The notes: a model not told the origin generated them from the letters alone. A DNA stretch of 64,000 bases from Tagaea sp. (GCA_965279525.1 CBDIIB010000004.1:736001-800000), one strand, 5' to 3'; shown: positions 26,495 through 36,530, counted from the first letter of the stretch. Translations and numbers: made by a program.

Positions 26495-27151
26495 TCAGTC
26501 ATCGCCAAGTGCCGGAAAGGCGACGGAAATTCCGATCATGTCCTTGCCCGGCGCCACGCCGATGCGCCCCCCGAGAGCGCCGGCCAGAATTCGCAGCATT
26601 TCTGCCGGTGCGGCCTTGGCGGAAAGCTCGTCGACCGGAACCTTGCCCGCCAATGTCGCAGACACTTCTTCGAACAGCCGGGCGCCCTGCCCGGTCGCTG
26701 TCGCATCGAGCTTGGCTGCGTTGCCGGATAGCTTCGCATCCAGCCGCACTTCGCCGCCCCGCGGCAAGGCCTCGACCAGCAGGAAAGCGGCCAGGAGTGC
26801 GATCCGCGCGCCCGCACGGCCGGCTGCGGCTTCGATCCCGGGATCGATGGTCCAGGGGCCGGACGCGACCTTTTCCCCGTCGAGCATTCCGGAAAGCAGT
26901 TGTGCCGCTGCGGCAAATGGCGCTCCGGCGGGCAACGTTCCGGCCGTACCGTAGATCGCGCGGAAAACCTGCAACCGGCGGCTTGCCTGGCGGGCGGACT
27001 GGCCGATCAGCCGGACGACATCGGCATCGGCAGCCTGGTCTTCGGTCAGCAGTTCGACCCCGTTGACAGTGGCACCCACGGGCCCGACAAGGTCGTGACT
27101 CATGCGGGCTGCAATCAACTCGACGAGCCTGAGTTCGTTCTTTCCGGTCAT
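26495..27151 (-). CDS. chpT: histidine phosphotransferase ChpT
   Basis: ARMSHDLVGPVGATVNGVELL H-box, RLQVFRAIYG and degenerate CA domain; near ctrA and DUF3553. Confidence 0.88.
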   Translation of the reverse strand: MTGKNELRLVELIAARMSHDLVGPVGATVNGVELLTEDQAADADVVRLIGQSARQASRRLQVFRAIYGTAGTLPAGAPFAAAAQLLSGMLDGEKVASGPWTIDPGIEAAAGRAGARIALLAAFLLVEALPRGGEVRLDAKLSGNAAKLDATATGQGARLFEEVSATLAGKVPVDELSAKAAPAEMLRILAGALGGRIGVAPGKDMIGISVAFPALGDD

Positions 27152-27220
27152 GACCCGGGCAGCCTCGCCCGAAACGGTCCCGGGTTTCAAGTTCGGCAGG
27201 TCCTGGGCTAGGATAATCCC

Positions 27221-27406
27221 ATGCGTCATCTCGTCCCCGGAGACTATGTGCGCCATCCCGATTGTCCCGATTGGGGCATCGGACAGGTCCAGTCGGCGAT
27301 TGCCGGTCGCGTTACCGTCAATTTCGAGCACCGGGGCAAGCTGCTGATCGATGCCGATGTCATCGAACTCGAAGCGGTAGACCCGGGCGGTCCGGAAGCG
27401 CTTTGA
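27221..27406 (+). CDS. DUF3553-like small protein
   Basis: PGDYVRHPDCPDWGIGQVQS..VTVNFEHRGK; divergent from chpT. Confidence 0.85.
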   Translation: MRHLVPGDYVRHPDCPDWGIGQVQSAIAGRVTVNFEHRGKLLIDADVIELEAVDPGGPEAL

Positions 27407-27799
27407 ATGTATGCTTTCTGCCAATTCAGGACCTTCGCGGTCGCCCTGCTTGCACTTGTCGCACTGGCGCCAGTCGGACCTGCTGCCGCCGCCGATCCTC
27501 GCCGCGGCGAGGAGATCTTCCGCAAGTGCGTCACATGCCACACGCTCGAGGCCGGCGGGCGCAACCGGGTCGGCCCGAGACTGGCCGGGCTCTTCGGCCG
27601 CACGGCCGGCTCGGTCGGCGACTACAGGTATACGGACGCGTTGAAGCGATCGGGCATCGTGTGGAACGACACGACGCTCGATGCCTATCTGAAAGATTCC
27701 GAAGCGTTCGTGCCTGGTACGAAGATGTACGGCGGCCTGACGCTCGATGCCGACCGAGCCGACCTGATCGCCTATTTGCGCCGTGCGACAGCACCCTGA
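27407..27799 (+). CDS. class I cytochrome c (c2-like)
   Basis: signal peptide, CVTCH heme motif, VGPRLAGLFGRTAG and PGTKM axial Met. Confidence 0.93.
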   Translation: MYAFCQFRTFAVALLALVALAPVGPAAAADPRRGEEIFRKCVTCHTLEAGGRNRVGPRLAGLFGRTAGSVGDYRYTDALKRSGIVWNDTTLDAYLKDSEAFVPGTKMYGGLTLDADRADLIAYLRRATAP

Positions 27800-27889
27800 A
27801 GACCGGCGCCAAGCTACGGCAAATATTGCAAAATCCGGCCGATTGAGTACAATCCGGCCCAATAAATCCGTTCTAGCGGGAGACAAAAA

Positions 27890-28015
27890 ATGCAGTCCAT
27901 GATGCTCGGTTTTGCGGTCGCGATCGTCCTCGCCGTCGGCGCGCATTTCGTGCTCGGCTCGATCCAGACCTCGACGGCGGATCGCTACGCAGCACCCGTC
28001 AGCGTCCGCCTCTGA
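27890..28015 (+). CDS. 41-aa single-TM small protein
   Basis: MQSMMLGFAVAIVLAVGAHFVLGSIQTSTADRYAAPVSVRL with a GGGAGA RBS; not in the supplied ORF track. Confidence 0.7.
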   Translation: MQSMMLGFAVAIVLAVGAHFVLGSIQTSTADRYAAPVSVRL

Positions 28016-28025
28016 GCCGTCCGGG

Positions 28026-28979
28026 CTATTGCGGCGCCTCGACTTCGGCGCCGGACGCGAGGTCCCAGACCTTCGCCACCTCGTCGTAGCCCGCCGACAC
28101 AGCAAGCCGGCGGCCGGGTACGAACGCGACACCCCAGACGGGCCGTTTGTGGCCCAGAAACTCGCGCATCTGGCGGCCGTCCGCGACCTGCCAGAGCCGC
28201 ATCGTGCGGTCGCCCCCACCGGACAGCACCGTCAGTCCGTCGGCCGAGAGTGCCACCGAGGTGACGAAGCCCCGATGGCCCTCGAGAACGGCTTTCTCGC
28301 GGCGGGCCCCCAGATCCCATAGCCGGACCGTCGCGTCGGTCGACGCGGACGCGGCGAGCCGCCCATCCGCCGACACGGAGACGGCATTCACGCTGTTCGT
28401 GTGCCCCTCCATCAGGGCGAGTTCACGGCCCGTCTCGCTGTCCCACAGCCGCAGGGACAGATCGTAGCTGCCGGAAAGCACCGTGCGTCCGTCCGGCAGG
28501 AACGCGACGGACATGACATTGGCCTTGTGGCCTTCCAGCGTGCGCAGCAACCGGCCAGTCGCGATATCCCACACCGCGATCGTGCGGTCCCAGCTCGCCG
28601 AAACCGCGCGCCTTGCGTCCGGGCTTACGGCCACCGACGCGACATTCGCCTTGTGCCCCTCGAACGTGCGGATCGACCGGCCAGTCTCGATATCCCAAAG
28701 GCGCAGCGTCGTATCCCAGCTTGCCGAAAGCCCGGTGCGGCCGTCCGGCAAAAAAGCGACACCGTTGACCGACGCCTTGTGTTCGTCGAGCACCCGGATC
28801 TCGCGCTGCGTGGCGAGATCCCACACGCGCAGCGAATAGTCCCAAGAGCCGGTCAGCACGCGCGTGCCGTCCGGCGAGACGGCAATGGCGTTGACCATGG
28901 CGCCGTGCCCGGCCATCTCCGCCCGTACCGCCGTTGCGGCGAACAGGACACCCACGAGAACTGCGCCGAATATCCTCAT
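28026..28979 (-). CDS. exported WD40 beta-propeller protein
   Basis: N-terminal signal-like segment followed by seven GH...WD-type repeats. Confidence 0.9.
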   Translation of the reverse strand: MRIFGAVLVGVLFAATAVRAEMAGHGAMVNAIAVSPDGTRVLTGSWDYSLRVWDLATQREIRVLDEHKASVNGVAFLPDGRTGLSASWDTTLRLWDIETGRSIRTFEGHKANVASVAVSPDARRAVSASWDRTIAVWDIATGRLLRTLEGHKANVMSVAFLPDGRTVLSGSYDLSLRLWDSETGRELALMEGHTNSVNAVSVSADGRLAASASTDATVRLWDLGARREKAVLEGHRGFVTSVALSADGLTVLSGGGDRTMRLWQVADGRQMREFLGHKRPVWGVAFVPGRRLAVSAGYDEVAKVWDLASGAEVEAPQ

Positions 28980-29052: not shown

Positions 29053-30135
29053 TCAGTCGTGGCCCATCTTGTAGGTCGGCATCGCCTGACCCTTGACCTT
29101 GGCGAGCCATACGCCGTGATGTTCCTTCGCCCAGTTCTCGTCGACCTGGCCGGTTCCCATCGCGTCGAAGGCCTGCTCCATCCCGAGCGAGCCGATATAG
29201 ATGTGCGCGATCACGATCGCCGTAAGCACCAAGCCGACGATCGCATGGATCACCTGCATGAGCTGCATCGAGGCGATGTCGCCGAACTGGAAGGGGAACA
29301 GCAGCCAGACGCCCGTGACGCTGAGCGCGACGCCGCCGCCGACGACCGACCAGAAAACGATCTTCTGGCCGGCATTGAACTTGTCGGCCGGCGGATGGAT
29401 GCCCTTCGAGAACAGCCCGCCGCCGACGGCAAGCCACTGCAGGTCGAGCTTCGAGGGGATGTTGTGACGCACCCAGAGCACGAACATCAGCACGATGCCG
29501 AGCATGAATGCGAACGACAGGTAGTTGTGCGCGTACTTCAGCAGCACCGACAGGCTCGTGAACATGTCGGGGCCGAGCAGCGGAAGGAGCAGATAGCGGC
29601 CATAGGTGATGTTGAGCCCCGAAATCGCCAGCACGACGAAAGCGCCGGCCGTCATCCAGTGGACGAAGCGCTCCGTTCCGTTGAAGCGCTCGATCGTCCG
29701 GCCGGAAAGCCCGCCGTCGATCATGATCTTGCCGCGAAGCAGGTAGAACGCGATCAGCGCGCAGCACATGCCCAGGATCAGCCACGAGCCCCAGACGCGG
29801 ACGGGGCCCTTGACCGTCTGGCGCCAGTCGCGGCCGGCCGGCTGGATGAGCGTGGCGGCATTCTGGTCCGGGATCGAGACCCAGCCGCGCGTCGGTGCCA
29901 GTGCGCGGAGCAGTTCGGTGTCGTTCGCCATCAGGCCGGCTTCGGGCCGCTGCGACGGGCTCTGGTAAGCGCCTGCGGCCGGCGGCATCAGGCGCGCGTT
30001 GTCGCTGGTGCTGACCGTCGGCGTCGACGAAGAGTTGACGGGTGCCGGTGCCTGCGCATCGGCCGGACCTGCCGCGAGGAAGCCGATCGCGAATGCGGCC
30101 AGCGCCAGGCTGCGGAATTTCGTGGCGAACGTCAT
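29053..30135 (-). CDS. fdhC: formate dehydrogenase gamma subunit (cytochrome b)
   Basis: ERFVHW, KYAHNY, KFNAGQK, AHIYIG and WAKEHH; N-terminal periplasmic extension. Confidence 0.93.
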   Translation of the reverse strand: MTFATKFRSLALAAFAIGFLAAGPADAQAPAPVNSSSTPTVSTSDNARLMPPAAGAYQSPSQRPEAGLMANDTELLRALAPTRGWVSIPDQNAATLIQPAGRDWRQTVKGPVRVWGSWLILGMCCALIAFYLLRGKIMIDGGLSGRTIERFNGTERFVHWMTAGAFVVLAISGLNITYGRYLLLPLLGPDMFTSLSVLLKYAHNYLSFAFMLGIVLMFVLWVRHNIPSKLDLQWLAVGGGLFSKGIHPPADKFNAGQKIVFWSVVGGGVALSVTGVWLLFPFQFGDIASMQLMQVIHAIVGLVLTAIVIAHIYIGSLGMEQAFDAMGTGQVDENWAKEHHGVWLAKVKGQAMPTYKMGHD

Positions 30136-30465: not shown

Positions 30466-31062
30466 TCAGGTACGCGAACCTTCGCCGTAGGCCGTCGCCC
30501 AGCCCCAGGCGCCCGAACCGTAACCGCGCGTCGTGACGCGCTCGCGGTAGATGCCCGCGATCACGTCGCCGTCGCCGGCGAGCAGGGCCTTGGTCGAACA
30601 CATCTCGGCGCAGAGCGGCAGCTTGCCTTCGGCCAGACGGTTGCGGCCATACTTGACGAAGCTGGCTTCCGTATTCGACGGCTCGGGGCCGGCGGCGCAG
30701 AAGGTGCACTTGTCCATCTTGCCGCGCGTACCGAAATTGCCCGCCTGCGGATACTGCGGCGCGCCGAACGGGCACGCGTAGAAGCAGTAGCCGCAGCCGA
30801 TGCAGAGGTCCTTGGAGTGCAGGACCACGCCTTCGGCCGTCTTGTAGAAGCAGTCGACCGGGCAGACCGCCATGCACGGCGCGTCGGTGCAGTGCATGCA
30901 GGCCATCGAGATCGAACGCTCGCCGGGCTTGCCGTCGTTGAGGGTGACGACACGCCGACGGTTGATGCCCCACGGCACCTCGTGTTCGTTCTTGCAGGCG
31001 GTGACGCAGGCGTTGCATTCGATGCAACGCTCGGCGTCGAGGAGGAACTTCATACGAGCCAT
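30466..31062 (-). CDS. fdhB: formate dehydrogenase iron-sulfur (beta) subunit
   Basis: CIECNAC, CMHC..C...CP, CIGCGYC...CP and KCTFC motifs. Confidence 0.95.
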   Translation of the reverse strand: MARMKFLLDAERCIECNACVTACKNEHEVPWGINRRRVVTLNDGKPGERSISMACMHCTDAPCMAVCPVDCFYKTAEGVVLHSKDLCIGCGYCFYACPFGAPQYPQAGNFGTRGKMDKCTFCAAGPEPSNTEASFVKYGRNRLAEGKLPLCAEMCSTKALLAGDGDVIAGIYRERVTTRGYGSGAWGWATAYGEGSRT

Positions 31063-31081: not shown

Positions 31082-34015
31082 TTAGGCCTTCTCGATGCGG
31101 CACAAGGTGGTTTTGGTTTCCTGCATCTGGGTCACCGGGTCGTAGCCGTAGGTGGTGATGGTGTTCACCGCCTCGCCGAGCACGATCGGATCTGTCCCTT
31201 GCGGATAGGACGAACGCATGTCCTTGCCCATCCAGTGGCCGGCGAAGTGGAACGGCATCCATGCCACGCCGCGGCCCACGCGTTCGGTCACCAGCGCCTT
31301 GACCTTGATCCGGGCGTTGTTCTCCGGACCGAAGACCCAGACGTCGTCGTTGTTCTTGGCGCCGATCCGGGTGGCGTCGGTCGGATTGATCTCGACGAAC
31401 ATCTGCTGCTGCAGTTCGGCGAGCCACTTGTTGGATCGGGTCTCGTCGCCGCCGCCCTCGTACTCGACCAAGCGCCCCGACGTCAGGACGATCGGGAACT
31501 GCTTGGAAACGTCGCGGTCCTGGATCGTCTTGAACAGCGTCGGCACGCGGTGGAGCATCCGGTCGGTGTAGGTCGGATACTTGGCGACCAACTGGCGGTC
31601 CGGCGAATAGAGCGGTTCGCGATGCGTCGGGACCGGGTCCGGGAAGTTCCAGACATTCGCCCGGGCGCGCGCGTTGCCCTTGGGATCGCAGCCGTGGAGG
31701 ATCGCCACGCGGATGACTCCGCCCGAGGTGTCGAAGTTCCAGGAGACGTTGTCGGCGTTGCCGGCAAACACCATCCGCCCGATGTCCTCGATTTCCGTGC
31801 GCTCCGCTTCCGTCAGGTCCTTGTCCCAGCCGAGGCGCTTGAGCATGCCATAGCTGAAGGCCGGGTGGCCGTCCTTGATCTCCGAACCCTGTGCCGCGAC
31901 GCCGTCGGCGAGAAGGCTCACGCCCTCGCGTTCGGCACCGAAGAGGACGCGGAAATTGCCGCCGCCCTTGGCGACCGGGATCGACTGGTCATAGAGGACG
32001 TGGGTTCCGGTGTGGCCGTGTTCGGGCTTGCCCCAGCACGGCCACGGCAGGCCGTAGAACTCGTCCTTCGCGATGGCCGCCATCCCGTCCTTGGCCGGGA
32101 TGTCCTTCAACGCGCGCAGGCTGACGCGGTCGAACGCGTCCTGGTTGGCCATGTGCGCCTTGAGACGTTCCGGGCTCTGGCCCGAATAGCCGGCCGTGAA
32201 GCACGTCTTGTTGATCTCGCGAAGGATGTCTTCGGCGAGCGGCTTCTTTCCGTCGACCTTGATGTTCTTGAACATCTCGGTCGCGAAGCCGAACTTCTCG
32301 GCGAGCAGATACATGATCTCGTAGTCGTTCTTCGATTCGAAGATCGGCTCGACGATCTGGCTGCCCCACTGGAGCGACCGGTTGGATGCCGTGCGGCTGC
32401 CGCTCATCTCGAGCGAGGTGCAGGCAGGCAGCAGGTAGACGCCGTCCTTGCGCTCGGCCGCCATGACCGGGATCTGCACGGGATGCGGGTCGATGACGAC
32501 GAGCGTGTCGACCTTCTCCATCGCCTTCTTGCCGTCGGGACCGCGTGTCTGGGTATTGGCGCCGTGGCCCCAGAACACCATTGCCTTGAGCGGCTCGGGC
32601 TGCCCCTGGATGTTCGCCTTGCTCTCGAGCGCAAGGTCATGCCAGCGGGACGCGGGCGTCCCCGGCAGTTCCATCAGCGCCTTCGACTTGAAGCGGGCCA
32701 GCATGTATTCGTACGGCACGCCCCAGCCGCGCGCGAAGTGGCGCCACGCCTGTTCGGTCAGGCCGTAGTAGTTGGGCAGGTTGAGAACGTCGAGGCCGAG
32801 ATCCGTGGCCCCCTGCACGTTGCAGTGGCCGCGGAAGATGTTGGTACCGCCGCCCGAGGTGCCGATCGTGCCGTAGTTCATCGCGAGGATGCAGTACGCG
32901 CGCACGTTGGCCGAACCGACCGTGTGCTGCGTGCCGCCCATGCACCAGATCACGCTGAACGGGCGGTTGTTCCACAACGTCTGCGCCACGCGGCGAAGCT
33001 GCGCGCCCGGCACGCCGGTGATCCGCTCGACTTCGGCCGGGTTGTACTTGGCCACTTCCTTCTTGACGTCTTCCCAGCCGTAGATGCGCCGGCGGATGAA
33101 CTCGTGGTCCGTCCAGCCGTTCTCGATCGCGTGCCAGAGGATGCCCCAGATCAGCGGAATGTCGGTGCCCGGGCGCAGGCGCACATGCTCGGTCGAGTGC
33201 GCGGCCGTGCGCGTGAAGCGCGGATCACAGACGATGAACGGCGCCTGGTTCTGCTCCTTGCCGCGCAGCACGTGCAGCATCGAGACGGGATGCGCCTCCG
33301 CCGGATTGCCGCCGATCAGGAACGTCGAACGCGAGTTCTGGATGTCGTTGTAGGAATTGGTCTGCGCGCCGTAGCCCCACGACTGGGCGACGCCGGCAAC
33401 CGTCGTCGAGTGGCAGATGCGCGCCTGGTGGTCGACGTTGTTGGTGCCCCAGAACGCCGCGAACTTGCGATTGAGATAGGCCGCCTCGTTCGTGAACTTC
33501 GCCGAGCCGAGCCAGTAGACCGAGTCAGGTCCCGCACTCTCGCGGATCTTCAGCAGGCGGTCGCCGACCTCGTTGACAGCCTGCGCCCAGCTCATGCGGA
33601 CCCAGCGGCCGTTCTCGAGCTTCATCGGGTATTTCAGGCGGCGGTCGCCGTGGACGATCTCGCGGATCGCGGCACCCTTGGCGCAGTGTGCGCCGAGGTT
33701 GATCGGCGATTCGAACGTCGGCTCCTGGCCGGTCCACACGCCGTTCTGCACTTCCGCGGTGACCGTGCAGCCCACCGAACAGTGGGTGCACATGTTCTTG
33801 ACGATCTTCGTCTCGACGCCGGCCTTCGGCGGCCCGAAGGCACCGGCGGCTTCGACCGTCTTGAACTTGAGCGTCGCCGCGGCGGCAACACCGCCGGCCA
33901 CGAGGCCCGAACGGCGCAGGAAGGCGCGGCGATCCATCGCCCCGCCCGCGGCACCCGCGAGGGCGGCCGTCAGACGCGTACCGGCGGCCTTGCCGGAGGA
34001 TTTCTTGGTAAGCAT
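31082..34015 (-). CDS. fdhA: formate dehydrogenase alpha subunit (Mo/W-bis-PGD, Cys ligand, Tat-exported)
   Basis: Tat RRAFLRR, CTHCSVGC..CAKG, ARICHSTT (TGC at 33415-33413), RGHCNVQG and ETK. Confidence 0.95.
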   Translation of the reverse strand: MLTKKSSGKAAGTRLTAALAGAAGGAMDRRAFLRRSGLVAGGVAAAATLKFKTVEAAGAFGPPKAGVETKIVKNMCTHCSVGCTVTAEVQNGVWTGQEPTFESPINLGAHCAKGAAIREIVHGDRRLKYPMKLENGRWVRMSWAQAVNEVGDRLLKIRESAGPDSVYWLGSAKFTNEAAYLNRKFAAFWGTNNVDHQARICHSTTVAGVAQSWGYGAQTNSYNDIQNSRSTFLIGGNPAEAHPVSMLHVLRGKEQNQAPFIVCDPRFTRTAAHSTEHVRLRPGTDIPLIWGILWHAIENGWTDHEFIRRRIYGWEDVKKEVAKYNPAEVERITGVPGAQLRRVAQTLWNNRPFSVIWCMGGTQHTVGSANVRAYCILAMNYGTIGTSGGGTNIFRGHCNVQGATDLGLDVLNLPNYYGLTEQAWRHFARGWGVPYEYMLARFKSKALMELPGTPASRWHDLALESKANIQGQPEPLKAMVFWGHGANTQTRGPDGKKAMEKVDTLVVIDPHPVQIPVMAAERKDGVYLLPACTSLEMSGSRTASNRSLQWGSQIVEPIFESKNDYEIMYLLAEKFGFATEMFKNIKVDGKKPLAEDILREINKTCFTAGYSGQSPERLKAHMANQDAFDRVSLRALKDIPAKDGMAAIAKDEFYGLPWPCWGKPEHGHTGTHVLYDQSIPVAKGGGNFRVLFGAEREGVSLLADGVAAQGSEIKDGHPAFSYGMLKRLGWDKDLTEAERTEIEDIGRMVFAGNADNVSWNFDTSGGVIRVAILHGCDPKGNARARANVWNFPDPVPTHREPLYSPDRQLVAKYPTYTDRMLHRVPTLFKTIQDRDVSKQFPIVLTSGRLVEYEGGGDETRSNKWLAELQQQMFVEINPTDATRIGAKNNDDVWVFGPENNARIKVKALVTERVGRGVAWMPFHFAGHWMGKDMRSSYPQGTDPIVLGEAVNTITTYGYDPVTQMQETKTTLCRIEKA

Positions 34016-34027
34016 CGGTCGGCCTCC

Positions 34028-34222
34028 TTACTTCGCGAGGGCGTAATAGGTCTTCACGTGCGCCGTTTCGGCGTAACCGGCCGACGGCGATGCCGTCGTT
34101 TCGGCGGCCTTGGCGGGCGCCGTTCCGGCGACGCTTCCCGCACCGGCGGCGACGGCGCCGAGGCCTGCGACTTTGAAGAACTGGCGACGCGAGGCCGCCT
34201 TGGGTTCCGGGTTCTGGCTCAT
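34028..34222 (-). CDS. 64-aa Tat-leader mini-protein
   Basis: SRRQFFK twin-arginine motif, Ala-rich h-region and C-terminal YAETAHVKTYY; AGAGG RBS. Confidence 0.85.
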   Translation of the reverse strand: MSQNPEPKAASRRQFFKVAGLGAVAAGAGSVAGTAPAKAAETTASPSAGYAETAHVKTYYALAK

Positions 34223-34236
34223 CGTTTTCTGCCTCT

Positions 34237-35106
34237 CTATCCCGCGTGTTCGTTGCTTGGCGACGCTTCGCCGATGGCGAAGGCCGCGCGTTCGATTTCG
34301 ATGAAGATGCGGCCGATCTGGCCGATCGGCATGTAAAGGCGTGCGGCCTTGGCGCTCGCGAGGTCGGCGAAGAACTTCTCCGCCCATGTCGCGACGTGGG
34401 CGTCGAAAAAGCGCTTCTGTGCCTCGAGCGGGGCAGGTTCGCCGAAAGCGCCGACGATCAGCCCCGCCATCATCTCGCAAAGCGAGGCCATGTGGTCTTC
34501 GGGTTCCGGCCGGTCGTTCGTGCGCGCGATGCCGAGACGGGTCATGGCGCCGCGCAGGTTGGCGAGCGGCTTCTCGTGCAGGAAGCCGGTCAGGTAGAAC
34601 GACGCATAGGGCTGAAGCTCGCCGCGTGCCAAGCCGACGAACAGGTCGTGGAACTCGTCGCTCGCCTCGTGCGGCGTGGTCTTGCGCGCGACGGCGGCAA
34701 GCGCCCGGATATGGCCGCCCAGTTCGCTGTCGTCGCCTTCCATGGCGCCAAGCCGGTTCAGCAGTTCCTGCGACGGCACTTCGGCAAGGAGTTCGCCAAG
34801 CAGCGCGTACCACGACGCGCGCACGGCTTCATCGGGATCGATGTCGATTTCGCTCTTCGGGATTTCGGCGCTGTCCATCTTCGCTGTACCGCCTGCGGCC
34901 GGATAAACGTCGGGGCGCAATTCGTGCCTCGGGACGCCGGTCGCGCCTTCAATCGCGAGCACGGCTTCGGCCGGAACACGCTTGCCGACCTTCAGCCAGT
35001 GCCAGACATGGCCCTGCGACTTGCCGATCAGCCGGGCAAGCGCCGACTGGCCGCCGGCCACCGCGATCGCGCGCTCCAATGCCGAAAGACTGCCGAGATC
35101 GCTCAA
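34237..35106 (-). CDS. Cro/YdaS-like HTH fused to a TorD/DmsD-family maturation chaperone
   Basis: N-terminal LERAIAVAGGQSALARLIGKSQGHVWHW..VPAE..IEGATG.VPRHELRPDVY; C-terminal PYASFYLTG, EPEDH and FFDAHV..W; no stop between them. Start uncertain (TTG 35106 or 35079; internal ATG 34878). Confidence 0.88.
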   Translation of the reverse strand: MSDLGSLSALERAIAVAGGQSALARLIGKSQGHVWHWLKVGKRVPAEAVLAIEGATGVPRHELRPDVYPAAGGTAKMDSAEIPKSEIDIDPDEAVRASWYALLGELLAEVPSQELLNRLGAMEGDDSELGGHIRALAAVARKTTPHEASDEFHDLFVGLARGELQPYASFYLTGFLHEKPLANLRGAMTRLGIARTNDRPEPEDHMASLCEMMAGLIVGAFGEPAPLEAQKRFFDAHVATWAEKFFADLASAKAARLYMPIGQIGRIFIEIERAAFAIGEASPSNEHAG

Positions 35107-35116
35107 ACTGTCACCG

Positions 35117-35134
35117 CTACTAACGGGTTTGTCG
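35117..35134. promoter_or_regulatory. putative operator copy 1 (CTACTA-ACGGGT-TTGTCG)
   Basis: 18-bp pseudo-palindrome about 10 nt upstream of the TTG start; inverted twin at 35284-35301. Confidence 0.6.
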
Positions 35135-35283
35135 CGAAAACCGCGTCGGTTCGAACCGTCAACTGGCTTACGTTTTCCATGCGGCGAACTTGGCGTTCCT
35201 GAAGCGACCTTGCGTTTGATCTCCGCAGGTCTTTTTTGTTGCGAGTCATTGTCAACATCCTCTTTCCAAAGGGAAAACGGCGC

Positions 35284-35326
35284 CGACAAGATGGTTAGTA
35301 GATAGCGCTACGCCGGAGCATGTCAA
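35284..35326 (-). promoter_or_regulatory. putative sigma-70 promoter (TTGACA at 35326-35321) overlapped by operator copy 2 (35284-35301)
   Basis: exact TTGACA, a CTATCT/TCTACT -10-like region 15-18 nt downstream, and CGACAA-GATGGT-TAGTAG covering the -10/+1 region. Confidence 0.55.
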
Positions 35327-35434
35327 CAACGTGCTGCGCATCGGTGGACATGTTGCGCTGCAGCATTCGGAATGTTCAAAAAATGCCCGGCCCGCTGTTT
35401 CGGGCGCACGCCGTACTGCGATGCAAAAATTCGA

Positions 35435-35971
35435 TCAGGCCGATTTGGACGACGGATCTTCGGGCGCCGGACTCTCCGCAGGCGTCGAATCGGCTGCTGT
35501 ACCCGTCTCCGCCGCAGCAAGGCGGGCCTTCTCGGCAGCCTCGGCCCGCTCGATCTCCTCCACGGCCTCGACCATGCCGGAGCCCACCCTGTAGATCGTG
35601 TTCTTGAGCCCCTCGGGGAAACACTGGACGGCGTTGAAGTCGATCGAGTGGCACTCCGAGATGTCGATGGTCGCGAAGTGCGGGTCGAGCGTCCAGAGCT
35701 TGCGTAGCGCCTGCGTGCGCAGGTCGGACGCGACATCGCCGCGCATGAAAAGGCTGTAGTCCGAATCCCGCGTCAAGGATTCGAGCGGCGGGAGTTCGAC
35801 GGGCTTCTCCTCGGCCGGCGGTGCTACCGGCTGAAGTTCGTTCGCCTGTTCGGGTACGGCCGGAGGGAGATCCTCGACCGGCGGCACGGCAGCTTGCGTC
35901 GCGCGTGCCTCGCTCTTCAGGCGCGACCAGCGACCCGCGAACCCTTCGGTCTGCCCGTCGTGCTCAGCCAT
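35435..35971 (-). CDS. DUF3306-like protein
   Basis: FAGRWSRLK, LPPLESL..DSDYSLFM and LRTQALRKLW..DP; FDH-cluster context. Confidence 0.85.
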   Translation of the reverse strand: MAEHDGQTEGFAGRWSRLKSEARATQAAVPPVEDLPPAVPEQANELQPVAPPAEEKPVELPPLESLTRDSDYSLFMRGDVASDLRTQALRKLWTLDPHFATIDISECHSIDFNAVQCFPEGLKNTIYRVGSGMVEAVEEIERAEAAEKARLAAAETGTAADSTPAESPAPEDPSSKSA

Positions 35972-36530
35972 CGTTTTCCTTCTGCGCGAAGGAAGCACGA
36001 TAGTCGTTTCCCTCCGCCCCCTTGCCGAACCCCTTGTTCGGATCGATGCGCGTGCGCTTGCGCTTCTTGAACGTCTCCTCGACGTGGTAGGCGGCGACAT
36101 AGCCGGTGAGCCACTGCACCATGGCCGACGTCATCGGCACCTTTTCGACCGAATGGACGCCGTCGACTGTGAAGGCCTCGGCCTCGCCGGGACTGGCCGT
36201 GACATGCCGCACGACGATGCCGGGTGCCGGAAGCGACGGATCGCGACGCAGCACCACGTAGACCGACGGGACCGGCTCGGCGAGATTCATCCGGTACATG
36301 ACGGTCTCGGCAACGAACAGCTCCAGCTCGAACTGCCCGGCGAACCAGATCGTCGCATCGCCTTCGACGCGCATCTTCGTCCATGGCGCCAGATCGGTGG
36401 TGCCGGCGACGATGTCGTGCGGCATCCATTGTTCTTCGCCCCAGGCCGTCTTGGGCGGACGTGCCGCCAGCAGCACGCCGATCGGCATGCGCTCGTCGCG
36501 CGAGACTTCTGGCTGAAGCTGGTCGTTCAT
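35964..36530 (-). CDS. DUF3305-like protein
   Basis: [23 protein letters not shown] and [11 protein letters not shown]; paired with DUF3306. Confidence 0.85.

Follow-up and report, generated by a model that had tools for sequence, protein, structure and literature searches.

Introduction

The operators of Cro proteins are short, imperfectly palindromic and overlap a promoter, and at high occupancy Cro represses its own transcription (PMC6649833). In phage 434, the sites are 14 bp long and consist of 5 + 5 contacted outer bases and 4 central bases, the reference being the ACATNNNN-type ACAATNNNNATTGT (PMC1636474). The 434 Cro is a displaced cI paralogue (PMC6649833). The known members of the TorD/DmsD/NarJ group, the redox enzyme maturation proteins (REMPs), are stand-alone chaperones without a DNA-binding domain. 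They have been treated as pure chaperones, and the control of the operon has been assigned to separate sensors. Here we describe a locus in a 64,000-nucleotide stretch of DNA from Tagaea sp. (GCA_965279525.1 CBDIIB010000004.1:736001-800000; the whole stretch is called the window, and positions are counted from its first letter), in which the chaperone bears its own DNA-binding domain. The gene, on the minus strand, encodes a Cro-like helix-turn-helix (HTH) domain fused to a TorD/DmsD-type chaperone domain. It is predicted to head an operon for a Tat-exported (periplasmic) formate dehydrogenase (Tat, twin-arginine translocation), and two 18-bp sites are located in the 328-bp gap before it. The two sites are most probably operators for the Cro-like domain of the fusion, which would control its own formate dehydrogenase operon.

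A 434-Cro geometry had been assigned to the sites in an initial reading made from the sequence alone (the sequence-only reading). This is right for the layout of the DNA. The consensus of the family, ACAAA-N4-TTTGT, has a 14-bp core of 5 + 4 + 5 bases with the outer bases ACAA...TTGT, as in the 434 operators (PMC1636474). A 434 lineage is wrong for the protein. 434 Cro belongs to the cI-like (HTH_3/XRE) lineage, whereas the fused HTH is matched best by YdaS and P22_Cro, and by the structure 3BD1. In addition, the 434 system has three adjacent operators between divergent promoters, whereas here two sites are 167 bp apart and the promoter has one direction. The likeness of the DNA to the 434 operators is best read as convergence.

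The true Cro lineage (the Cro proteins of P22, N15 and Xfaso 1) is closer. It has the same small all-alpha HTH fold as the fusion, and palindromes are located at the promoter in both cases, so that the fusion would likewise repress itself at high occupancy. The helix and the half-site also co-vary as in the published Cro code. Unlike a phage Cro, the fusion is found outside a phage immunity region, without a cI partner or a divergent promoter, and is covalently joined to a chaperone domain of ~200 residues. Where the phage has three tandem OR sites, the fusion has two sites separated by 114–226 bp, and it is chromosomal and vertically conserved in a respiratory operon.

Results and discussion

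The two sites and the promoter

On the plus strand, CTACTAACGGGTTTGTCG is located at 35117–35134 and CGACAAGATGGTTAGTAG, the reverse complement of CTACTAACCATCTTGTCG, at 35284–35301, as described in the sequence-only reading. On the gene strand, the order is TTGACA, 16 nt, TATCTA, the distal core, ~150 nt of leader, the proximal core, 12 nt and the start codon TTG (35106..35104). The −35-like hexamer TTGACA corresponds to 35326..35321 (minus strand). The −10-like hexamer is CTATCT (35305..35300), or TATCTA one base downstream, so that the −10 region covers 35299..35305 (minus strand). The −10-like hexamer probably resembles the alphaproteobacterial −10 consensus. The putative distal operator O_D (35284..35301, minus strand; core ACTAACCATCTTGT at 35299..35286) overlaps the end of the −10 hexamer and the expected +1 position. 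The putative proximal operator O_P (35117..35134, minus strand; core ACAAACCCGTTAGT at 35132..35119) is separated from the start codon by 12 nt. The centres of the two sites are 167 bp apart, and the positions proposed earlier, one copy over the −10/+1 region of a TTGACA promoter and the other just before the start codon, hold. According to the promoter position, the 5′ untranslated leader from O_D/+1 to the start codon would be ~186 nt long (35107..35292, minus strand). Against ACAAA-N4-TTTGT, O_D matches 8/10 and O_P matches 9/10. Each site is a pseudo-palindrome of this consensus, and thus both sites fit a symmetric HTH dimer.

The gene start directly after the proximal site is borne out by the orthologues, all of which show a start codon (ATG in most) where TTG 35106 lies in the window. 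A 350-codon open reading frame (ORF) from TTG 35289 (34237–35289, minus strand) was rejected as the gene; its extension contains stops in five of the eight closest orthologues. This ORF is the longest one and spans both operators and the leader. It is a trap for annotators, as it over-extends the gene across its own operator.

The repeat search confirmed the inverted pair (18 nt, 14/18 or 78% complementary, 149 nt between the arms). Exactly two copies of the shared pattern CTACTAAC-N4-TTGTCG are present in the window, against a shuffle mean of 0.08, and in the whole genome (4.35 Mb) the pattern is again found only at these two places. As the pair itself supplied the pattern, such a count is circular. 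With two mismatches allowed, four further matches were found in the genome, against six for the reversed control. The pair alone is correct but not beyond chance, and its significance comes from conservation.

Conservation across orthologous loci

The orthologue set consists of 16 loci with this HTH-TorD type among 41 related genomes. Sites were scored by matching 14-mers against ACAAA-N4-TTTGT, out of 10. A site of at least 8/10 is present within 80 nt of the start in all of the 16 loci, and in 14 of them exactly 12 nt separate the proximal site from the start codon; the leader around it is poorly conserved. The distal site is found 27 nt after TTGAC in 9/9 close relatives, with preserved half-sites (TACTAA and CTTGT) around a variable 4-nt spacer. 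The promoter TTGAC-N16-CTATCT is conserved directly ahead of it in the same nine, and each position of the −10 consensus cTATcT is kept in at least six of them. Half-sites that are kept around a freely varying centre are the pattern expected of a protein-contacted palindrome.

In the five other loci of the same genus, the distal site is absent, and a 10/10 palindrome is located ~45 nt upstream of the −35 hexamer instead. Thus, the two-site design is retained though one site has moved. Two or more sites are present in 14/16 loci when distal sites of 7/10 are counted. In the single-site relatives of the Ferrovibrio type, the equivalent site lies between the −35-like and the −10-like hexamers. 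As this site is within the promoter, O_P may descend from a promoter operator.

The inter-site distances are 167, 166, 152, 149, 158, 225, 217, 225, 226, 225 and 114 bp, corresponding to 10.9–21.5 turns without a common phase. Looping between the two copies had also been suggested. The distance allows it, but the phasing lends it no support over this range of 114–226 bp. Looping repressors (lac, gal and deo) similarly have two operators that flank or overlap the promoter; they differ from this family in their inter-operator helical phase. Looping is not favoured, because the phase between the sites is not conserved. Two further symmetric elements of the sequence-only reading are present in the window but are not conserved: TGTTG-N11-CAACA (35237–35257) recurs in 3/16 orthologous upstream regions, and CGGTTCGAACCG (35147–35158) recurs in 1/16.

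Rank of the sites in the genome

In the genome of the window (66% G+C), there are no sites of 10/10, eight of 9/10, one of which is O_P, and 202 of 8/10. An operator matrix was constructed from the proximal sites of the 15 other orthologous loci (12 distinct), and the genome of the window was left out. In a genome-wide scan, a check proposed with the sequence-only reading, this matrix puts O_P first of 4,347,154 positions, with 23.3 bits. O_D is ranked 33 of 4,347,154 by the same matrix, with 11.9 bits, and positions of at least this score are expected 0.0025 times per 328 bp. The first rank of O_P is partly due to shared ancestry. The rank of O_D is not, since two different places in one locus are compared.

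The next-best matches of the matrix (17.9–19.7 bits) are G000 C4:917141, C5:1796194 (L143) and C3:152236 (L144). One of them sits between divergent SBP_bac_5 and Fer4_20/Pyr_redox_2 genes. In the search for a regulon, these next-best matches were near SBP_bac_5, Fer4_20/Pyr_redox_2 and unannotated ORFs, with no evident link to formate dehydrogenase.

The motif tracks the recognition helix

Four states of torD are found inside the order of the window (50 genomes), namely three classes of recognition helix and an HTH-less form. The xVWHW helices, QGHVWHW in the window, pair with ACAAA-N4-TTTGT. The QPSVSxW helices of a sister genus have no ACAAA-N4-TTTGT, and a CCATAGG-N5-CCTATGG-like palindrome is located over the promoter. 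The divergent HTH with the helix HCTTVQGW has TTACG-N7-CGTAA in the promoter spacer/−10 region, and a second site, CTACG-N7-CGTAG, abuts the start codon. None of the three palindromes is found upstream of the HTH-less torD genes of this order. The link between helix and motif is not simply species phylogeny, because the window's own family alone contains the HTH-less form and each of the three helix classes.

A wider test was performed with three fixed templates on 80 loci from named genomes across Alphaproteobacteria, which had not been used to define the motifs; 79 were scored after one duplicate of L008 was dropped. For the xVWHW helices, ACAAA-N4-TTTGT is matched 10/10 in 4/5 loci, at −24 to −27, and the other two templates in 0/5. 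For the QPS/A-x-S-x-W helices, CATAG-N7-CTATG is matched at least 9/10 in 39 of the 55 loci and at least 8/10 in 51; the other two templates reach at least 9/10 in 4/55 and 0/55. For HCTTVQGW, TTACG-N7-CGTAA is matched 10/10 in both loci (L112 and L082), although L082 is possibly the same organism as L024. L082 was one of 18 loci whose match had not extended to the HTH; it carries the third HTH type and its palindrome, and the other 17 are HTH-less. In these 17 HTH-less loci, none of the three templates is matched. We estimate that a 9/10 match arises by chance within 330 nt in ~0.5% of loci. The prediction that the motif should track with the HTH and be missing before HTH-less torD genes is thus borne out, and the motif also shifts when the recognition helix shifts, in three classes.

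In the Cro code, A at +2 is paired with Gln at H1, and G at +5 is paired with Ser/Thr at H3 (PMC6649833). QPSVSNW/CATAG agrees with the code at both positions, HCTTVQGW/TTACG at H3 and QGHVWHW/xACAAA at H1. The fit is suggestive only, since the HMMER alignment to 3BD1 served to set the helix register. Autoregulation by the fused HTH, as proposed in the sequence-only reading, is well supported at the level of sequence, with sites that are conserved, co-vary with the helix and are missing where the HTH is missing.

Two observations were made beside these classes. In four loci with the helix QPSVSAW (L099, L105, L116 and L125), ACAAAAGT(T/C)TTTG(C/A) is present at ~−106 to −122, 16–17 nt upstream of CATAG-N7-CTATG. 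This element resembles the operator of the xVWHW class. In HTH-less TorD proteins of the same order (L042, L046, L047, L049, L050, L023 and L025), a conserved N-terminal motif, GRWEASLQ, is found in place of the HTH.

The encoded protein

The fusion gene (34240..35106, minus strand; stop codon at 34237–34239) encodes 289 residues arranged as Cro/YdaS-HTH, linker and TorD domain. The Cro-like HTH comprises residues 1–70 (34897..35106, minus strand), with the recognition helix QGHVWHW within the helix of residues 31–41 (34984–35016). According to Pfam, PF15943 is matched at residues 10–70 with 67.4 bits (cut-off 30); P22_Cro (PF14549) scores 16.4 bits, under its cut-off, and HTH_31 has an E value of 0.031, below threshold. 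In the AlphaFold2 (AF2) model, the HTH is all-alpha with five helices in residues 2–63 and pLDDT above 90. Against 3BD1, the Cro of the Xylella prophage element Xfaso 1, the phmmer E value is 1.1e-5, and in Foldseek the TMt is 0.86–0.88, with an r.m.s. difference of 1.1 Å and 42–44% identity. According to the sequence and the model, the fused HTH is a bona fide Cro-type DNA-binding fold.

A disordered linker of ~24 residues (67–90), modelled by AF2 with low confidence, joins the HTH to the TorD/DmsD-type redox enzyme maturation chaperone domain. This domain was assigned by Pfam and Foldseek to residues 91–285 (34252..34836, minus strand); PF02613 is matched with 97.3 bits (cut-off 22.2) at residues 125–246. 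The Foldseek matches are YcdY (9M26), DmsD (3EFP and 3CW0), 1S9U, TorD (1N1C) and NarJ (8JZD), and those to YcdY, DmsD and 1S9U have a probability of 1.00 and TMt of 0.63–0.77. The fusion is a member of the REMP family but not an orthologue of TorD or DmsD, because both NCBIfam equivalog models score far below their cut-offs. Homodimer prediction with two full-length copies and a 46-row alignment gave a score of 0.00, which is not used for or against binding.

Proposed mechanism

The binding itself, its dimeric mode and the sign of the regulation are inferred, as is any part that the chaperone domain might play as the signal input. The fusion would bind O_D as a dimer across the −10/+1 junction. 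Since O_D begins within the −10 hexamer, at its last base, and covers the expected transcription start, the occupied O_D should block initiation. O_P, which is beside the ribosome-binding region, could serve as a roadblock, could cooperate with O_D or could mask a weak second promoter. The net effect would most likely be negative autoregulation of the chaperone and the formate dehydrogenase operon. In some Bradyrhizobium loci, where the palindrome precedes the −35 hexamer, the sign of the regulation may differ and activation is possible.

It is conceivable, but on balance unlikely, that the chaperone also reports its own workload to the promoter, as a direct feedback from the maturation of Tat substrates to transcription. 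With a free TorD domain, the Cro domains would occupy O_D and O_P and the operon would be shut. When a twin-arginine leader, from the apo-formate dehydrogenase or from a small Tat-target protein, is held by the TorD domain, DNA binding would be lost or changed. Alternatively, the trigger would be the recruitment of the chaperone to the maturing enzyme. In either case, more chaperone and enzyme would be made. This proposal is drawn from the architecture only, namely an HTH, a flexible linker, a leader-peptide-binding domain and two Tat leaders encoded directly downstream. The RRNPP regulators (PlcR, ComR and Rgg) offer an analogy, in that an HTH is combined with a helical peptide-binding module that sets the DNA-binding activity. 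The Foldseek matches to ComR, PlcR and Rgg (probability of 0.14–0.47 and TM of ~0.2) do not indicate homology, and a twin-arginine signal peptide would be the ligand of the fusion. A further analogy is offered by those type III secretion chaperones that also serve as co-factors of transcription. If the proposal is true, the feedback would have been built from a domesticated phage Cro that spread among Bradyrhizobium, Bosea, Nitrobacter, Afipia, Ferrovibrio and their relatives and whose helix and operator were re-tuned at least three times.

Alternative explanations

Several results weigh against operators of the fused HTH. An Escherichia coli-type promoter scan found no promoter in 35000–35500, and the promoter at 35326..35300 is predicted from its conservation, not by the scan. 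In some Bradyrhizobium loci the palindrome is just upstream of the −35 hexamer, and the sign of the regulation may differ between lineages. The distal site scores only 8/10 in the window and 7/10 in 3/9 relatives, and its conservation could come partly from the adjoining −10 hexamer and from a predicted 11-bp RNA 5′ stem that uses its right half. In the wider test, no site is found at the xVWHW-type locus L066, and 16/55 loci of the second class stay under 9/10. The second and third templates had first been derived from part of the data and were then tried on other loci, and related genomes are non-independent samples. Finally, an 18-nt inverted repeat with at least 14/18 matches arises in 57/300 (19%) dinucleotide shuffles of the 328-bp intergenic region.

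The last point favours a chance inverted repeat without function, and so do the comparable repeats (I1 and I2) that the repeat search found near the pair. This explanation is very improbable, as the position is conserved in 16 loci and across orders, the sites rank 1 and 33 in the genome, and the motif co-varies with the helix. Somewhat less remote, although still improbable, is a constraint by the promoter, the 5′ end, ribosome binding or RNA structure, by which O_D would be a −10/discriminator and a stem strand, and O_P a neighbour of the Shine-Dalgarno sequence. O_P indeed has a fixed distance of 12 nt to the start codon, O_D adjoins the −10 hexamer, and the right half of O_D is predicted to pair with the conserved GGTGTTGACA block in the 11-bp stem that is kept in 8/8 leaders. 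However, the arms are kept in sequence and not just in complementarity, and one motif is common to both sites. In the five other loci of this genus, the perfect palindrome that stands in for the distal site precedes the −35 hexamer and is hence untranscribed, and the palindrome of the second helix class overlaps or precedes the −35 hexamer. An ACAAA/UUUGU stem with a 4-nt loop would probably be weak, and the leader has no Rfam match.

The elements may also be real and conserved but bound by a transcription factor from another locus, for instance a global regulator or a separate Cro/YdaS-like protein; the target of the fused HTH would then be a different one, or it would have none. We give this explanation little weight, marginally more than the constraint by promoter or RNA. 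That the motif shifts with the fused helix in three classes and is absent from 17/17 HTH-less loci argues against it, as does the fact that the best site of the genome fronts the fusion gene itself. Stand-alone YdaS-like ORFs are indeed present in relatives, but in only three of the genomes searched (G005, G010 and G020). TGCTGC-N3-GCAGCA palindromes in the same regions indicate that other factors probably act here. Operators for the fused Cro-like domain remain the preferred explanation of the two sites.

Leader RNA and nearby elements

RNAalifold analysis of eight leaders predicts the 11-bp 5′ stem at ~35249–35292 (minus strand), in which the right half of O_D pairs with the conserved GGTGTTGACA block. 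The stem is kept in 8/8 leaders via one-sided changes only. The GGTGTTGACA block includes a second TTGACA. In the Rfam search of 34900–35600 with E values up to 1, only a chance match to a microRNA (E 0.12) was obtained, and no molybdenum cofactor (Moco) or other riboswitch was found. The E. coli-type terminator scan found none. A 48-codon leader ORF (35249..35106, minus strand), whose TGA overlaps the TTG start as TTGA, was rejected; it stops after nine codons in L009/L010. Among contigs of sequencing runs, the RNA runs contain at most 0.08 of the words of the region, and four runs of unknown kind contain 0.74–0.98.

A second palindrome, the G+C-rich TGCTGC-N3-GCAGCA, is located upstream of the −35 hexamer at 35350–35366 with one mismatch in the window, and a weaker copy is near 35415–35426. 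At 11/12 or more, it is found in 16/61 HTH-bearing upstream regions (loci L063–L132), against 1/61 control stretches. It is found in 0/17 truly HTH-less regions; the one occurrence among the 18 loci first left unaligned to the HTH is in the HTH-bearing L082. Another regulator might bind there, or the fusion itself might have this palindrome as an additional target.

The stand-alone YdaS/Cro-like ORFs of the three relatives encode ~80 residues that are 38–54% identical to the fused HTH. They are located at G005:C11:149960-150166 (L028), G010:C11:130535-130735 and G020:C39:484-798. Their products could compete for the same operators.

Distribution and significance

Both Pfam domains are present in 56 of the 120 best database matches. 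One source names a match 'TorD / YdaS (Cro superfamily)', and the rest of the best matches are called plain TorD chaperones. Among the 150 best representatives of 50%-identity clusters, nine align over both domains. In the main text of PMC4464133, a survey of this chaperone subfamily, the terms HTH, helix-turn-helix, fusion, fused and DNA-binding do not occur. A TorD/REMP protein with a DNA-binding domain was not found in full-text literature searches, which leave most subscription journals uncovered. As far as these searches reach, the design is found in many Alphaproteobacteria and is undescribed. The fusion would be a Cro-type autoregulator that was recruited into, and fused with, a molybdoenzyme chaperone.

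The cognate operators can be read directly from genomes, and the three helix/operator pairs form a natural specificity series, which adds non-phage examples to the problem of the Cro recognition code. Since the operators are readable and the genera Bradyrhizobium, Bosea and Salinarimonas are cultivable, the binding, the sign of the regulation and the effects of Tat leaders are directly testable.

Operon setting

The neighbours of the fusion gene are all on the same strand, with DUF3306 upstream and formate dehydrogenase genes downstream, and there is no prophage immunity region or divergent cI-type gene. The DUF3306 gene (35435..36100, minus strand) ends 328 nt before the start of the fusion gene and is preceded by DUF3305, mobA and fdhD. 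Directly downstream are two genes with Tat signals. One encodes the small 'formate dehydrogenase region TAT target' protein with SRRQFFK (34028..34222, minus strand), for which TIGR02811 scores 47.8 bits, just under the cut-off of 48.45. The other encodes the formate dehydrogenase alpha-like molybdopterin subunit of 977 codons with the twin-arginine motif MDRRAFLRR (31082..34015, minus strand). They are followed by the FDH3-type iron-sulfur beta subunit (30466..31062, minus strand; NF038355, 334 bits, cut-off 240) and the gamma (cytochrome b) subunit (29053..30135, minus strand; TIGR01583, 147.7 bits, cut-off 115.85). This arrangement is like that of the 'DmsD-fdh' operons with DUF3305/DUF3306 (PMC4464133), which contain the chaperone domain, the fdh tat gene, fdhGHI-like subunits and upstream DUF3305/DUF3306.

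Two minor observations concern the ORFs of this region. A 574-codon ORF at 26495–28219 (minus strand) matches the ChpT histidine phosphotransferase in its C-terminal third, with 100.7 bits, below the cut-off of 225. The ORF of the alpha subunit has 26 codons ahead of MDRRAFLRR (33937–34015, minus strand); that Met may be the true start, and the twin-arginine motif would then be N-terminal.

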